DNA from: Candidatus Saccharimonadota bacterium
GTDB taxonomy: Bacteria; Patescibacteriota; Saccharimonadia; Saccharimonadales; Saccharimonadaceae
Assembly: GCA_017515205.1 (NCBI GenBank)
Contig: JAFWHN010000005.1
Location: 13 to 64,012, forward strand
DNA: 64,000 nucleotides
Reading direction: 5' to 3'
Part shown: positions 15,932-59,765 of the stretch, piece after piece
Numbering within the stretch: the first letter of the stretch is position 1
Layout of the letters: each line of letters begins with the position of its first letter
Notes under the pieces: generated by a model
Database searches by the model: none
The model's input: the letters and a program-made list of their open reading frames with translations, nothing else
Told to the model about the DNA's origin: nothing
Made by a program: the position numbers and the translations under genes

Positions 15932-16363
15932 TTACTCGTGGTGATAAGCCCCACCCCGTGCTATTTGCATTGCCCGGTATGTTTGCTCTACTGCCATTAA
16001 TCTAGCTAGCATATGGGGAAACACCAATTTCGAAAAGCTCCACACAAAATCCGCTTTTTCTCGCGTCTGATCATCAAATCCATAGGCTCCACCAATCAGA
16101 ATTATCACTTCTTTGCCGTCCACAAAAGCTTTTTCAAGTAGCCTAGAATATTCATCTGATGATATATTTTCTCCTCGTTCATCTAAACAAATCACAAAAT
16201 CCGAGGCTTCAAATGGCCAATCAGCCAAAAAGTGCCTCAATTTTTCTTCATCCATCACCTGCCAAGTTATATCATATGGCTTTCTTAAACGTTTTTCATA
16301 TTCAGTACACGCCTCAGCACACCAATCAACATTTTTTTTGCCCCCTGCAATTATCTTTATCAT
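15932..16363 (-). CDS. rlmH: 23S rRNA pseudouridine-1915 methyltransferase
   Basis: CLDERG..ISS, LIGGAYGF, WSFSKLVFPHMLARLMAVEQTYRA...YHH. Confidence 0.96.
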   Translation of the reverse strand: MIKIIAGGKKNVDWCAEACTEYEKRLRKPYDITWQVMDEEKLRHFLADWPFEASDFVICLDERGENISSDEYSRLLEKAFVDGKEVIILIGGAYGFDDQTREKADFVWSFSKLVFPHMLARLMAVEQTYRAMQIARGGAYHHE

Positions 16364-16447
16364 AGGTCAAATTATACCATAAAGTCATAGAGAAAACGGT
16401 AATCCACGAGTGTAAAAAAGCGCCGCAATTAGCGACGCTCTATCTGC

Positions 16448-17230
16448 CTAACTAAACATGGAAACGAACAATCTTTGAAAAAAACCTTTTTTATTCTCCA
16501 TCTCCAACGGGTTAGGCTCTTCTGTAAATACCTGGTCAATAGTTTCTTCGTTCGTTACTGGATCACTAGGATTCAATCTATCGAAGTATCTTTTCCTTGC
16601 GCAATAAAAGAGAGTTTTTGCGTTTTCAAATTCTTTCCTGAGATTATCTAGCTCCTTTTTAGAATGGAGAAACAATCTTCTTGACTTCCTGTGCCTTTCT
16701 TTTGCTTCTTCATAGGCAAATCTGGCAGCCTCAAAATCAGCATTATTCTTTCTTGGCGCAATTCTCTCAGCCTTTTGTCTAGCATCACGAATCGCTTGAC
16801 ACTTTTCACCAATCTCAGAATTCAGCTGACTCAAACGCTCTCTGTGTTCATGCCCCTTTTGGGCAAAAACAGGAGCTTCACTTTTGTCACCATATTCGTA
16901 AGCTGATCTTGCTTGGTTAAAACACCTATCTGCCTTATGCTTTTCCGATTCAGCTTCACGTCTTAGTAACTCAATCTGAGAATGAGTTTCATTTTTGAAC
17001 TCAGCAAATTCTTCCCAAACTTTACTATTTGGTTCATCATAAATTACGTTATATTCCTCTTCCATCTTCGTTTTTGCTTTTGATAAAACATCCCAGTCTT
17101 TCTGCATCACTTCATAAGCTGAATTAGTTTGGCTTCTTACCTTATCAAATTTCTTATACGCTTTTTGCTTAGCTTCAAATGCAATGTCTACTGCGCTCTT
17201 TAACGTTTCTAAAACACACTCATCTGGCAT
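16448..17230 (-). CDS. Hypothetical coiled-coil protein
   Basis: Long charged helical ORF, strong AAGGAGG SD, terminator-like hairpin downstream. Confidence 0.65.
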   Translation of the reverse strand: MPDECVLETLKSAVDIAFEAKQKAYKKFDKVRSQTNSAYEVMQKDWDVLSKAKTKMEEEYNVIYDEPNSKVWEEFAEFKNETHSQIELLRREAESEKHKADRCFNQARSAYEYGDKSEAPVFAQKGHEHRERLSQLNSEIGEKCQAIRDARQKAERIAPRKNNADFEAARFAYEEAKERHRKSRRLFLHSKKELDNLRKEFENAKTLFYCARKRYFDRLNPSDPVTNEETIDQVFTEEPNPLEMENKKGFFQRLFVSMFS

Positions 17231-17305
17231 TTACTTTCCCTCCTTTAAAAGTACTAACAAAAACAACGTTCTCCCCATATTATAACATAAATCATAAAAA
17301 TAGCA

Positions 17306-17352
17306 ATAAAAATGACTAAATTAAGTAGGATTCGCATCAGATAAAGTGGGAT
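17306..17352 (-). repeat. Third, degenerate tRNA-Gln 3'-end/hairpin unit (left half)
   Basis: tgactaaattaagtaggattcgcatc vs unit at 18612 tggctagtttgagcaggattcgcatc (first 22 nt match 17/22). Confidence 0.7.
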
Positions 17353-17377
17353 ATCTCAAGTCTAATGAAACCCCTAG

Positions 17378-18460
17378 TTAAGTTTTATCTTTTAAAAATA
17401 CTTTTCGCATAGACGGAAGCCGTATTTTTGCTAACTCTACCATGCTGTAAACAGATATTGACACTACGAATGTACCAACATAAAGCATAATCATTTTTGT
17501 AGTCACCGACAAATAATCATTCAAATATAGCACAATTACTTCATTTACTACTTGATGGAATAAGTAAAAACAAAGCGATATTTTTCCTAGGAAATCAAAC
17601 GGCCAAAAACGAATCTTCGATTGTAATGTTTTCCCTGATAGCAATAATGCTAAAGTCAACATAAAGAAGAAAATAACATTAAACGAGTATAATCTGTCCT
17701 CAAGCACGAGCATACGATTGTTCGTCCATAAAAATATCAAGCTGATGCCAAAACATAATAACTCTGCTATCGATAAGAAGACTATCCAAACTTTTCGAAA
17801 ATCTAGTTTTTTAATATATTCACTTAATACATAAACAATTGCGCCCATACTTAAGCCAGCCAGTGAGCGTAAAAGCGTAGTTGTATCAACACTACTAAAA
17901 GTAGCAAAGCCTAAATAATATGTTAAACAAAAAGGAACAATTAAGAAAAAGAGAAATGTTTTATGTTTTGATTGGCAAAATGTACAAAAAATCGGGTAAA
18001 TCACAACTACTGCGGCTAAATACCATGTCAGTCCAAGTGCTCCACCCCCCTGTGTATTTAAGAGCGTTAATTCCAAAACCATTCTCTTGAAAAAACCGAG
18101 CAGCTCTTCTAATGAGTTAAAATCTAGGTAAATAAATTTAACTAAATACATTAATAACACGGCTATAATCGTGTAAGGCAAGAACACCTTAAATTTTTTC
18201 CAAGTATATTTCGCCGCTTCCTTACATTGTTCATCAAAACTTTTTTCTTCATATTTTTTATTTGCAAAATGTTTAACCGTAAAATAGCCAGTTAGCATAA
18301 AGAACAATTCAACGAACAAAAACGCTCCAGCGAAATGAAAGACGGAAAAATTTTCCTGGTATCGTATGTACGGTGAGTGATACCAGATAATGAAAATGCA
18401 AGCTATAAAACGTAACAATTCAACCACACTAATGGGCCTGTTTTCTTTATTCTTCTTCAT
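17378..18460 (-). CDS. Acyltransferase-3 (OafA/YrhL-like) membrane O-acyltransferase
   Basis: VVELLRFIA, VELFFMLTGYF, WYLAA, LGKISLCFYLFH; ~10 TM helices; AT-rich. Confidence 0.88.
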   Translation of the reverse strand: MKKNKENRPISVVELLRFIACIFIIWYHSPYIRYQENFSVFHFAGAFLFVELFFMLTGYFTVKHFANKKYEEKSFDEQCKEAAKYTWKKFKVFLPYTIIAVLLMYLVKFIYLDFNSLEELLGFFKRMVLELTLLNTQGGGALGLTWYLAAVVVIYPIFCTFCQSKHKTFLFFLIVPFCLTYYLGFATFSSVDTTTLLRSLAGLSMGAIVYVLSEYIKKLDFRKVWIVFLSIAELLCFGISLIFLWTNNRMLVLEDRLYSFNVIFFFMLTLALLLSGKTLQSKIRFWPFDFLGKISLCFYLFHQVVNEVIVLYLNDYLSVTTKMIMLYVGTFVVSISVYSMVELAKIRLPSMRKVFLKDKT

Positions 18461-18567
18461 CTAACCTCCCATAAAAAAAGAGACAATCATTCTACAATTA
18501 TCATCTCTCAAATTACCTCCACTTACGGTTATTATAACGAATAAGTAGCATAATATCAAGCACACAT

Positions 18568-18688
18568 TGAGATCCGAATCCTCGTTTTTTGATTTTTTAT
18601 CTTATAAAAAATGGCTAGTTTGAGCAGGATTCGCATCGAACGAAGTGAGATCCGAATCCTCGTTTTTTAATCTTTTGTGAAACAAAAA
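18568..18688 (-). repeat. tRNA-Gln-linked ~77-bp tandem repeat units
   Basis: tgagatccgaatcctcgtttttt at 18568 and 18646; tggctag at 18612 and 18689. Confidence 0.88.
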
Positions 18689-18763
18689 TGGCTAGGCTGG
18701 CAGGATTCGAACCTGCGAATGACGGGACCAAAACCCGTTGCCTTACCACTTGGCGACAGCCTA
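18689..18763 (-). tRNA. tRNA-Gln(TTG)
   Basis: TAGGCTGTCGCCAAGTGGTAAGGC; ACGGG-TTTTGGT-CCCGT; GGTTCGAATCC; CCA. Confidence 0.97.
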
Positions 18764-18858
18764 ACGTGTTTCCAATTATAGCACGAGCGCAGATTTTTTC
18801 AATCCTTCAACCTTATATACCCCTTGTGCTTTTCTAAAAAGTGTGCTATAATTAACCT

Positions 18859-21036
18859 ATGCCTAGAAAAAAGCGAAAATCAACACGAAAAACTTCTCGG
18901 CGCTCCACTTCCAAAAAAGAAGCACCAGTTGAATATGAACTTCCCGGTGGTTTTTGGCGTCAAATTGGCGCAATCGTTATGATTGCACTAGCTCTTTTTT
19001 TCGTTGTCACTTGGTTCGGTCAGGGCGGTACCATTTTTAACAAAGTTCATGAATTTATTTTAAGCGGACTGGGCTTTGCTACTTACTTTATTCCAGCTCT
19101 ATTAGTTTATCTTGCCGTAAAAATTTTCCGTTCAGATGACAATCGCGTTGCGGTGCCGGTTTATATCGCAAGCGTTTTAATGATTTTCTGGATTTCCGGC
19201 ATCGCTGCAATTTGGCAAAATGGTGGACTCGTTGGTAGTTGGCTTAATTCTTTATCTACTAAGTTTTTAAGCCAAGGCGTGGTTATTTTTATTTACATCA
19301 TTTTGATTTTTATCACTACGGCTTTTCTCTTGCAACTTTCTCCAGTCACCTTCTTTAAAGGCACCAAAAATATGGTCAAACGTAGCAAAATCCCTGAAGC
19401 AACCGACGAAGATGATACCAAAAAAAGCAAAAAACTTGGTCAACTCGAAATTAAAGTCAATTCTGGCCTTAATGGGGAACAACCAGCTTCGTCTAGTCTT
19501 TTGCATAAATCTCCTGCTAAATCTGCTCCCGAACCAGCTAAAGAGCCTACAGCTCTTGTAGCAGTTTCTGATCCAGATTGGAAAATGCCAACTGTCGACT
19601 TACTAGAGAAAAAACAATCTCCAGCTGATGCTGGCAACATTCAGCAAAACGCCTACATCATTAAATCTACCTTGGCAGAATTTGGTATTGATGTTGAAAT
19701 GGAAGGTGCCAACGTTGGTCCACGCGTTACGCAGTATACCATGCGTCCACCAGCCGGCGTTAATCTATCCAAAATTCTTTCCCGTGACAAGGAATTAGCC
19801 CTTAATCTTGCTGTCGACAAAATTCGTATCGAAGCGCCAATTCCGGGCACGCGTTCAGTTGGCGTTGAAATTCCAAATGCTCGGTCTGCTGACGTACGTT
19901 TGCGTGGCGTGCTTGAAAGCCCTGAATGGAAAAAGTCTAATGATCCACTTTGTTTTGCCGTTGGTAAAGACATTTCCGGTCACGCCGTAATAGCCAATCT
20001 GGCTAAAATGCCTCACCTTCTCATCGCAGGTACCACTGGTTCAGGTAAGTCCGTTATGACCAACACCCTCATTAGCTCCCTGCTTTATCGCAATACTCCT
20101 TCCGACATGAAACTCATTATTGTCGACCCAAAACAGGTTGAAATGGCCCAGTATCAAGACATTCCTCACCTTCTTACGCCAATTATTACCAGCACCGAAA
20201 AAGCTCTTTCTGCCATGAAATGGGCAGTTGGCGAAATGGAACGTCGTTACACTTTGATGGCAGAAGCAAAAGTCAAAAACATCGGTGATTACAACGCCAA
20301 AATGGCTAAATCCGATCAAGAAGAAAGCGAAAGCAAAATGCCATACATTGTAATTGTGATTGATGAAATGGCTGACCTTATGATGATGGCGGGGAAAGAC
20401 CTTGAAATGCTCATCGTCCGCATCGCTCAAAAAGGCCGTGCTGCCGGTATTCATTTGGTACTTGCTACTCAGCGTCCGGAAGTAAAAGTTATTACTGGCC
20501 TTATTAAGGCTAACATTCCAGGTCGTATCGCCTTCGCGGTCGGTTCCCGCATCGATTCTCAGATTATGCTCGACCAAGGTGGTGCTGAAAAACTTCTTGG
20601 CAAAGGTGATATGTTGCTTCTCACCACTGAAATGATGGGTAAACCACGTCGTATTCAGGGCGCTTGGGCCTCTGATGAAGACATCAATAAAGTGACTGAT
20701 TTTCTCCGTTCTCAACGTGAGCCACAGTACAACGACGAAGTGATTGCTCAACAAGTTGCCATTAAAGGTATGCCAGGCGGTGGCGGCCCAAGTGACCTAG
20801 GTCGGCGTTTTGATCCGAATGACCCAACCGTCAGAAAAGCCGTTGAAATCACTCTAAAACAAGGTAAGTTTTCTACTGCATCATTACAAACTTGGCTAGG
20901 TAAAGGTCACGGTTTTGTAGCTGGACTTGCAATTTGGTTGGAAGAAATTGGCGTCATTGGCCCTGCAAACGGCAACAAACCTCGCGATGTCCTCATCACT
21001 TCCATGGACGAGTTTGACCAACTGAGCAACATGTAG
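18859..21036 (+). CDS. ftsK: DNA translocase FtsK/SpoIIIE
   Basis: 4TM N-terminus, HLLIAGTTGSGKS, IDEMADLM, ATQRP, gamma domain. Confidence 0.96.
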   Translation: MPRKKRKSTRKTSRRSTSKKEAPVEYELPGGFWRQIGAIVMIALALFFVVTWFGQGGTIFNKVHEFILSGLGFATYFIPALLVYLAVKIFRSDDNRVAVPVYIASVLMIFWISGIAAIWQNGGLVGSWLNSLSTKFLSQGVVIFIYIILIFITTAFLLQLSPVTFFKGTKNMVKRSKIPEATDEDDTKKSKKLGQLEIKVNSGLNGEQPASSSLLHKSPAKSAPEPAKEPTALVAVSDPDWKMPTVDLLEKKQSPADAGNIQQNAYIIKSTLAEFGIDVEMEGANVGPRVTQYTMRPPAGVNLSKILSRDKELALNLAVDKIRIEAPIPGTRSVGVEIPNARSADVRLRGVLESPEWKKSNDPLCFAVGKDISGHAVIANLAKMPHLLIAGTTGSGKSVMTNTLISSLLYRNTPSDMKLIIVDPKQVEMAQYQDIPHLLTPIITSTEKALSAMKWAVGEMERRYTLMAEAKVKNIGDYNAKMAKSDQEESESKMPYIVIVIDEMADLMMMAGKDLEMLIVRIAQKGRAAGIHLVLATQRPEVKVITGLIKANIPGRIAFAVGSRIDSQIMLDQGGAEKLLGKGDMLLLTTEMMGKPRRIQGAWASDEDINKVTDFLRSQREPQYNDEVIAQQVAIKGMPGGGGPSDLGRRFDPNDPTVRKAVEITLKQGKFSTASLQTWLGKGHGFVAGLAIWLEEIGVIGPANGNKPRDVLITSMDEFDQLSNM

Positions 21037-21148
21037 CAAAAACCGTGCTTGCACGGTTTTTCTATGTTGCGAAAGTTGGACGAATTATTCGACCAACTGA
21101 GCAACATGTAGCAAAAACCGTGCTTGCACGGTTTTTCTATGTTGCGAA
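21016..21148 (+). repeat. Tandem 58-bp exact direct repeat (period 75) containing the ftsK 3' end and a hairpin
   Basis: 21016-21073 is identical to 21091-21148; internal palindrome aaaaaccgtgc-tt-gcacggttttt. Confidence 0.92.
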
Positions 21149-33916: not shown

Positions 33917-34855
33917 CTATTTTGTTTCACTGTGGAATTTTTCATGCACCTCTTTAAGGTGCGTGTCTGTCACGTGCGTATATATTTGCGTTGTTGAAAT
34001 ATCTGCATGACCTAGCATTGATTGTACTGCCCTCAAATCCGCTCCGTTCATCAGTAGATCAGTCGCAAACGAATGCCTCAGAGTATGCGGCGAAACGTGC
34101 TTAGTAATACCCGCAAGCCGGGCATATTTATCGATAATCCTTTCTACTGACCTCGCCGTCATTCGTCGATAATCACCCGATGTATCTGCCGTTTGCAAAT
34201 TCCGTGAGTTATTTAAAAACAGCGCTGGCAGGGAATCAGTGCGAGCGTCCAAATAATCTCTCACTCGGTCCGCACAAGCCTCCGAAATAAAAATTGGCCG
34301 ATCTTTTGAGCCCTTACCACGCACCATAAATTCTCGTCTTTCCAAATTAATTGAATCACGATTTAGCCCTACCAACTCTGATACTCGTAACCCTCCCGAA
34401 TACAACAGCTCAATGATAGCTCGGTCTCTTAGCCCCGACTCGGTGGATGTGTCCACTTGCTCTAACATTTCTTCCACCTCGTCAAAATGCAAAAACGTCA
34501 CTTGTTTCCTAATCACTCTCGGCAAATCCACTAGTGACGGATCTAATGATTTAATCTCCCTTCGTGCCAAGTATTTCAGAAACCCTCTCAATGCAATCAA
34601 ATGATATGCCTGTGTAATCACTTTCAAATCATCCTCGCCGTTTTTTGAACCGTAGCGGTTGAGCTTCAGGCGGTATTTTCTTAAGAGTTCTTTCGTAATA
34701 TCGCTCGGTTTAATCTCATCTTTATTTAGAATCTCCTGCGCAATTTCCAAAAACCTCTCTAAATATAATCGATAATTTTCAACGGTCTTCTTGCTGCGCC
34801 CCGCTTCCACCTCGAGATGTTCCAAAAAATCATTGATTAAATCGTAAATATCCAT
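33917..34855 (-). CDS. xerC: XerC/XerD-family tyrosine recombinase
   Basis: GLRVSE, GKGSK, HTLRHSFAT, LGHADISTTQIYTH; start corrected to 34855. XerC vs XerD cannot be resolved. Confidence 0.85.
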   Translation of the reverse strand: MDIYDLINDFLEHLEVEAGRSKKTVENYRLYLERFLEIAQEILNKDEIKPSDITKELLRKYRLKLNRYGSKNGEDDLKVITQAYHLIALRGFLKYLARREIKSLDPSLVDLPRVIRKQVTFLHFDEVEEMLEQVDTSTESGLRDRAIIELLYSGGLRVSELVGLNRDSINLERREFMVRGKGSKDRPIFISEACADRVRDYLDARTDSLPALFLNNSRNLQTADTSGDYRRMTARSVERIIDKYARLAGITKHVSPHTLRHSFATDLLMNGADLRAVQSMLGHADISTTQIYTHVTDTHLKEVHEKFHSETK

Positions 34856-34872
34856 ACTTTCATTATAGCATA

Positions 34873-34954
34873 GCAAGCGGATGACGGCTTTGGAGGGGGT
34901 CCCCCAAAAGTGCCACCACTTTTGGGGGAGGACAAAAGCCGGCAGGACCCGCTT
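34873..34954. repeat. GC-rich nested palindrome between divergent xerC and ndk
   Basis: cccccaaaagtg/cacttttggggg inner stem; ggcttt/aaagcc and aagcgg/ccgctt outer stems. Confidence 0.75.
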
Positions 34955-59566: not shown

Positions 59567-59592
59567 AAAAAGAGGCTCTAGGCCTCTTTTTT
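59567..59592. terminator. Bidirectional terminator
   Basis: aaaaagaggc-tcta-ggcctctttttt. Confidence 0.7.
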
Positions 59593-59601
59593 GTACTAAA
59601 A

Positions 59602-59765
59602 CGGCGTATTCACACGTTCGACGAGGCTCGCACCGAGCCGCAGTCGAGATCCGAATCTCTCTTTTTGATATTTTTTTCGTAAAAAAAAATGGCGGATCCG
59701 CACCGAAGGTTCGAGCTTTGCTCGACGAGGCTCGAACTCGCGACCGCTTTTTTTCGTAAAAAAAA
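59602..59765 (-). repeat. Two degenerate tRNA-Asp 3'-end copies with hairpin inserts
   Basis: tggcggatcc at 59690 and 59766; acgaggctcg occurs three times; gagatccgaatctc motif near 59646. Confidence 0.88.

Follow-up and report, generated by a model that had tools for sequence, protein, structure and literature searches.

A tRNA-Gln-linked hairpin repeat array with one unit split by an O-acetyltransferase gene

Layout of the tRNA-Gln locus

The window, by which we mean the whole 64,000-nt stretch of DNA analyzed here, comes from a small, Saccharibacteria-like genome with an assembly of ∼650 kb. It carries a tRNA-Gln(UUG) gene on the minus strand at 18689–18763 (identified by ARAGORN and scoring 63.5 bits with the Rfam tRNA model), preceded by a predicted promoter at 18775–18802 (−) that agrees with the consensus at 11/12 positions (TTGAAA-16-TATAAT with a TG extension). 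Immediately 3′ of the tRNA gene and in the same orientation is an array of two repeat units with a period of 78 bp (the spacing of repeat D2), for which tRNA-Gln is both the anchor and the source of sequence. An Rfam search of 16000–20000 at permissive thresholds found nothing beyond tRNA-Gln.

Read in the tRNA sense, the CCA end is followed by spacer 1 (18661–18688, −), a T-run and then an A-run that leads into unit 1. The extended hairpin of unit 1 (18626–18660) is 35 nt long and consists, from the outside in, of an 8-bp outer stem, a 1 × 1 mismatch, a 3-bp stem, a 2 × 2 internal loop, a 2-bp stem and a triloop. The outer stem (AGGATTCG/CGAATCCT) is perfect and is the only such match in the window, where 0.01 would be expected by chance. 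A preliminary description of this DNA had placed a complete 77-bp unit with a perfect 8-bp stem after tRNA-Gln; the unit is intact and the stem perfect, but its length is 78 bp. The 3′ arm of the hairpin (CGAATCCT) is the initial 8 nt of a copy of the tRNA-Gln 3′ end (CGAATCCTGCTCAAACTAGCCA; 18612–18633, −) that overlaps this arm, so the hairpin is made from tRNA T-arm sequence, as had been said. Where the tRNA-linked repeats of Escherichia coli have 18–19 bp of 3′-end identity, the copy in Gln unit 1 is decayed, with 10 nt exact at its start and ∼16/22 overall, with one indel.

Spacer 2 (18583–18611, −), which lies in repeat D2 and is identical to spacer 1 at 20/28 positions, separates unit 1 from unit 2. 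Unit 2 is represented at this point by its 5′ arm alone (18568–18582, −; AGGATTCGGATCTCA in the tRNA sense), which terminates in the duplicated hexamer described below. There follows a 1,215-bp insert (17353–18567, −), a single gene module with a GC content of 32.7% compared with 40.9% for the window, and then the 3′ part of unit 2 (17313–17352, −), comprising what remains of the inner hairpin together with the 3′ arm CGAATCCT and an acceptor-like tail that has decayed. On the tRNA-sense strand, this part is followed by a T-run (17308–17312), and the predicted promoter of a DUF1771 gene (17279–17306, −; 10/12 plus TG) is located directly beyond the tail of unit 2.

One repeat unit is split by a gene module

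The right half of unit 2 (18568–18610) is 84% identical to 18646–18688 over 43 nt, including 23 exact bases, and the left half (17308–17352) matches 18607–18651 at 35/45 positions (78%). The latter is the top non-self match across the whole 650-kb genome, and the maxima obtained from 20 Markov-2 random genomes of 650 kb were 26–30/45, below the observed value. The preliminary description had proposed that a single unit is broken in two, to be checked by comparing the match at 17313–17352 with randomized sequence; the match is significant and the proposal is borne out, with the two halves in register. They share a 6-nt overlap (TGAGAT/TGGGAT, the motif already reported at both junctions), and when rejoined they have exactly the length of unit 1, with zero indels. 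The 6-bp duplication at the junctions of the insert matches at 5/6 positions. A loose signature scan of the genome found, among the matches listed, a single orphan 5′ arm and a single orphan 3′ part in the correct order and orientation, and no further orphan half of either kind (5′ arm, GGATTCGGATC; 3′ part, GATGCGAATCC). Because the halves are significant, in register and without another orphan half among the matches listed, we conclude that one repeat unit is split by the insert.

Residual doubt attaches to a rival explanation in which the two halves do not derive from one split unit. They would instead be leftovers of separate truncations, or the segment would have been replaced by homologous recombination with DNA of another strain, and the near-perfect complementarity of the end points would be fortuitous or inherited. 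Two random cut points would fall within ±6 nt with a chance that we estimate at ∼0.17, which is not negligible. The exact unit length argues against separate truncations, as do the finding of one orphan of each kind in 650 kb among the matches listed, properly ordered and oriented, and the similar divergence of the two halves from unit 1. On balance, we consider this explanation unlikely.

A 12-nt near-palindrome is present at one junction (17347–17358), where the TGGGAT hexamer adjoins its own inverted copy, ATCTCA. This arrangement is a hint that the break was structured and related to the hairpin, and not random. The overlap region of a tyrosine recombinase, or a transposase, would likewise leave a 6-bp duplication. 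The size of the duplication and the inverted hexamer could leave a small opening for a structured mechanism, and they are equally compatible with hairpin-break repair.

The insert contains a strong predicted promoter, a leader of ∼70 nt and an acyltransferase ORF, which is its sole ORF, in agreement with the single acyltransferase gene reported earlier in the ∼1.2 kb between the halves. The ORF (17378–18460, −) encodes a 360-residue integral-membrane O-acetyltransferase of the Acyl_transf_3 family (Pfam, 1e-24) that also matches the phage O-acetyltransferase family phrog_3333 (PHROG, 5e-20) and presumably acts on a surface glycan. Its own predicted sigma-70 promoter (18531–18559, −; TTGATA-17-TATAAT, 11/12) is kept in the homologous modules L061–L063. 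Terminal inverted repeats are absent from the ends of the insert (ATCTCAAGTCTAAT... and ...ATATCAAGCACACAT). Although the insert is low in GC, its GC3 of 0.33 is like that of the neighboring genes, and base composition is a weak witness of origin. The leader (18461–18530, −) contains a Shine-Dalgarno site together with an upstream ORF of 16 codons, the stop of which overlaps the start region of the acyltransferase gene. A further element of the leader, a GAGAGA...TCTCT hairpin with seven T behind it, resembles an attenuator; this hairpin is kept in L063 with a compensatory change and is deleted in L061.

Of 40 related genomes, which include 24 congeners, none has a homologue of the acyltransferase at E ≤ 1e-10, and no close relative was found in viral contigs and genome contigs. 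A large protein database yielded relatives at 82, 72 and 83% identity, whose contigs carry the same module of promoter, leader and ORF in three other neighborhoods. Because a homologue is absent from the 40 relatives and homologues at 72–83% identity occur in these three neighborhoods, we conclude that the gene is accessory and horizontally acquired. Nucleotide homology to the modules in other contexts spans ∼17378–18560, which is the insert less 7 nt and 25 nt at its ends. The coincidence of the insert boundaries with those of a conserved module (to ≤7 nt and ≤25 nt) supports a split of the unit. None of the modules L061–L064 lies next to a tRNA, and none significantly matches the hairpin arms or the 3′ part of the unit. 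In L061, where the module is upstream of ftsK in the opposite orientation, the T-rich spacer 'TTTTTGTTTCA-CAAA' just upstream of the module is common to the window (shuffle p ∼0.001, in low-complexity sequence), and the repeat context may in part travel with, or predate, the acyltransferase module.

A family of tRNA-linked hairpin units

At least 10 of the 46 tRNA genes in this genome have a copy of their own 3′ end 50–170 nt downstream, in the same orientation and usually preceded by a hairpin. The carriers are Gln-UUG, Ser-CGA, Ser-GGA, Ser-GCU, Tyr, Lys-UUU, Gly-UCC, Asp (with two copies), Arg-CCG and Arg-UCG, and in the Ser-GGA, Ser-GCU and Lys-UUU units the 3′-end copies are exact over 18–28 nt. 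The tRNA-Ser(CGA) and tRNA-Asp units lie in the window at 1860–1922 and 59590–59765; one of the tRNA-Asp copies corresponds to the last 32 nt of the tRNA, interrupted by a 23-nt hairpin where the T stem meets the acceptor strand. Another contig of the same genome (G000 C3:1–125) opens inside a second tRNA-Ser(CGA)-like 3′ half, after which there is a different unit (GGATTCGGACCTTCGGTGCGAATCC plus an exact 3′-end copy). This partial tRNA-Ser points to strain heterogeneity or to an assembly broken by a second copy of the gene.

Units of this kind are common behind tRNA genes across the genus, and they turn over between species. In the congener G004, 5 of 35 examined tRNAs carry units (Tyr, Val-UAC, His, Ser-UGA and Glu-CUC), and only the Tyr carrier is common to G004 and the host genome, which implies that units come and go rapidly. 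A unit is present at 7 or more of 17 other tRNA-Gln loci, and in seven other species the copy at tRNA-Gln has 0–2 mismatches to the species-specific 3′ end of that tRNA. A search for the exact hairpin pattern in 60 genera of the family gave almost no match outside the host genome, indicating that the arm sequence is lineage-specific.

The hairpins share an architecture of outer stem, 1 × 1 mismatch, 3-bp stem, an optional 2 × 2 loop with 2–4 bp, and triloop. Across 11 units, 108/121 stem cells are Watson–Crick, with double compensatory changes in four pairs. One compensatory pair follows the T-loop base of the cognate tRNA, being T-A, C-G and G-C for CGAATCC, CGAGTCC and CGACTCC, respectively, and the previously described covariation of the triloop stem with the tRNA-Ser copy is present in the sequence (AC-GAA-GT versus GC-GTA-GC). 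As regards an RNA- versus a DNA-level role, the hairpin has no strand preference: the non-Watson–Crick cells comprise five A·C and four G·T, and the folding energies favor one strand or the other, unit by unit.

The same design occurs after a protein-coding gene. The 3′ end of ftsK (window 21016–21148) contains a tandem duplication of the last codons plus the terminator (58 nt exact, period 75), in which a 17-nt linker (21074–21090) folds onto the beginning of the second copy to form a hairpin. The shared design of ftsK and the tRNA units argues for local duplication at 3′-end hairpins with maintenance of the palindrome, and against tRNA-specific integration.

Among known systems, the units resemble E. 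coli tRNA-linked repeats, whose function is unsettled and which likewise finish with the 3′ end of the gene upstream (Egan and Landy 1978 and Rudd 1999, summarized in PMC8144298). The E. coli repeats are transcribed by read-through from the tRNA gene and undergo processing at the copied 3′ end. As in E. coli, where one to five units lie after a tRNA or rRNA gene, there are one to several units directly after the tRNA gene and in the same orientation, each unit ends in a copy of the gene's own 3′ end, and some units lie between two terminators. Unlike the E. coli repeats, the copy is fused here to a long T-arm-derived hairpin, with a stem that covaries with the T loop of each tRNA; the units are shorter (∼50–80 nt) and turn over fast between species, and one of them is interrupted by a gene. 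A description of a tRNA-linked hairpin repeat family in Saccharibacteria was not found in the literature that we searched. REP/BIME sequences, Rickettsia palindromic elements and MITEs are likewise short, structured, multi-copy palindromes that can mark points of rearrangement. The outer arms of the present units are, by contrast, locus-specific and copied from each tRNA. Nor does the Y1/RAYT transposase that acts on REP hairpins have a counterpart, a genome-wide search for the Y1 (IS200/IS605-like) transposase domain PF01797 having returned no match. Of the marks of an IS or a MITE, the cargo has neither terminal inverted repeats nor a transposase, and the 6-bp duplication with its 5/6 match is present.

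Variation at the locus and the origin of the insertion

We compared same-species contigs drawn from NCBI assemblies and from ENA, JGI and Logan metagenome assemblies. The acyltransferase gene is between the halves in every such contig that spans the locus, with neither an empty site nor an alternative cargo among them, and a protein-cluster look-up gave no additional strain variants. Two strains, L028 and L031 (GCA_017511845.1), lack exactly 78 bp, so that the tRNA spacer leads directly into the 5′ arm and the gene, and recombination or slippage between identical 5′ arms explains the missing unit. The number of units in the array varies among strains; the cargo does not come and go. Because an empty site was not found, the insertion event itself is something that we infer.

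In the sister lineage L100, whose FtsK is ∼90% identical, tRNA-Gln is followed by one unit, a terminator, a convergent gene for a 191-aa membrane protein and DUF1771. The arms of the L100 unit fit the T loop of its own tRNA-Gln (CGAGTCC). The 191-aa membrane-protein gene (L100:1465–2037) occupies the place of the acyltransferase gene in the window, homology between the two lineages restarts at the DUF1771 promoter, and the tRNA-Gln of G007 also has this gene after it. The host genome keeps a 63–80% identical copy of it elsewhere (G000 C9:153883–154458). The 191-aa membrane-protein gene seems to be the ancestral neighbor, in which case the window would represent a replacement rather than a simple insertion; this point favors the replacement of a segment by recombination, introduced above as part of the rival to a single split unit. 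In G004 a truncated unit is followed directly by rlmH, and in other species an ABC ATPase gene or ftsK lies downstream of tRNA-Gln. Because relatives carry different genes after tRNA-Gln, the region 3′ of this gene is highly variable across the genus.

The units of relatives are cut at differing points: inside the 5′ arm in G013, after the loop in G004 as in the window, after the 3′ arm in L100, and inside the acceptor copy in G011. The missing halves of the truncated units in G013 and G004 were searched for and not found, and the partnerless truncated units of G004, G013 and G011 lend some weight to separate truncations in the window as well. An ungapped sliding search of the ∼20 kb surrounding tRNA-Gln in 17 other species found no distal half-units. 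As a control, this search recovers the left half in the window at 31/40; it was preferred over blastn-short, which missed the window's own split unit. The comparison of empty and filled sites and of different cargo that the preliminary description had called for thus went against its expectation of a variable junction, with all same-species contigs filled and no split unit in the 17 species. A dispersed ∼45-nt repeat (CTCCCTTGATATTACTCTATGGCTAGACAACGGAGGGAG) that is unrelated to the units occurs in at least five copies within 20 kb around tRNA-Gln in a congener (L056, G010:C16).

The genome has a single gene with a Phage_integrase domain (window 33917–34876), 15 kb from the array. Its product matches the XerD, XerC and XerA models and scores 126 bits against the integron integrase model TIGR02249, for which the cut-off is 265. 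No integrase is present between 16448 and 18763. The one large serine recombinase of the genome, a 565-aa ORF, is located on another contig (G000 C7:43275–43718, −), close to the end of that contig and ∼1.1 kb from tRNA-Lys(CUU); this locus may be a prophage or an integrative element.

An imperfect hairpin beside a single-gene unit and an accessory cell-surface cargo are features shared with integron cassettes and their attC sites. Unlike an integron, the locus has no IntI gene adjoining the array, no attI and no Pc promoter. In place of promoterless ORFs each with an attC, there is a module with its own predicted promoter; in place of a variable multi-cassette array, there is one cargo, and only the number of empty units varies among strains. 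The hairpin, moreover, belongs to the chromosomal array and does not travel with the gene. We rejected an integron-like gene-capture system on account of the distance and Xer-like nature of the recombinase, the promoter carried by the module, its hairpin-free homologues and the single cargo.

The preliminary description had regarded the folded hairpin as an attC-like recombination or capture site for surface-modifying genes. In such a model, Xer or an unknown enzyme would act on a single-stranded fold, as at attC or at the attP of CTX phage, and capture promoter-bearing genes for surface modification at a TGAGAT core. Several features of the locus would fit: the duplication is as long as the overlap of a tyrosine recombinase, one junction has the near-palindrome, a Xer-type recombinase is encoded in the genome, and the hairpin is conserved with compensatory changes and contains a GNA triloop and tandem G·A motifs. 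Such motifs are stable in single-stranded DNA. However, the case is a single one, with none in this genome's other tRNA-linked units among the matches listed and none at the locus in 17 species. Homologous modules elsewhere are without the hairpin, the hexamer is without a flanking binding-site dyad, same-species contigs show neither an empty site nor another cargo, and the break points of relatives fall at differing positions in the unit. Capture at a folded site is, in our estimation, very improbable, and the attC-like role is not supported, given an enzyme that is Xer-like only, one cargo, no split unit in the 17 species and scattered truncation points. We would regard as equally far-fetched a more general proposal, that T-arm hairpins are preferred entry points for foreign genes, recognized in folded form by Xer or a structure-specific nuclease, and that the arrays are an integrase-free, tRNA-anchored capture platform in reduced genomes.

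A remnant of a tRNA-targeting element would also place an accessory gene beside a tRNA. By this account, an element integrated at the tRNA-Gln 3′ end, the fragments are its attL and attR, and the integrase and most of the element have been lost. As in tRNA-anchored islands, 3′-end fragments occur as direct repeats, the downstream region is variable and the acyltransferase gene is accessory. The copies run from the T loop to CCA, reportedly the identity block typical of att sites of the T-loop class. In G022 the downstream copy is the tRNA-Gln allele of other species. Neither of the two downstream copies in G030 is the same as the 3′ end of the adjacent tRNA-Gln(CUG), and one of them matches the 3′ end of the host genome's own tRNA-Gln(CUG). 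Partial tRNA genes have been described as attR remnants (PMC9897764). Against such a remnant, and unlike an island with its internal integrase and partial tRNA direct repeat, an integrase is missing from the segment and its vicinity, and the repeats extend past the tRNA-like part into the spacer, 5′ arm and loop. The insertion point is inside the hairpin loop rather than between the tRNA and a fragment, and most copies are just 50–170 nt from their tRNA, tens of bases rather than kilobases. The copy-plus-hairpin layout after ftsK, which is not a tRNA gene, is a further difficulty. We judge an element remnant to be a decidedly unlikely source of the locus.

The account that we favor, and hold to be probable, is that of a tRNA-linked repeat array in which an accessory O-acetyltransferase module with its own promoter entered one dispensable palindromic unit by an illegitimate event, after which the insertion was fixed. 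The last third of tRNA-Gln, from the T arm to CCA, would have been tandemly duplicated together with the trailing T/A-rich spacer to give the 78-bp units, which, as after ftsK, would be generated by local duplication at 3′-end or terminator hairpins. In each copy, the T loop would have been remodeled into a long hairpin in which the 3′ arm is the T-loop/T-stem copy and the 5′ arm was kept complementary to it. The self-contained acyltransferase module would later have inserted on the loop side of unit 2 and left the 6-bp duplication. Insertion was probably illegitimate, mediated by microhomology or by a break at the hairpin, in a palindromic repeat that would be prone to breakage and that sits in the variable region after tRNA-Gln; the insert would then have become fixed in the species.

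If this ordinary reading is true, the locus shows a tiny epibiont genome gaining a surface-modifying O-acetyltransferase in a dispensable repeat near a tRNA gene, and the enzyme is likely to be relevant to host attachment or phage resistance. The repeat family itself, with its compensatory stems and its copies that track each tRNA, is perhaps a more useful result than the insert. It makes Saccharibacteria a second lineage, besides the enterobacteria, in which to ask what tRNA-linked repeats do.
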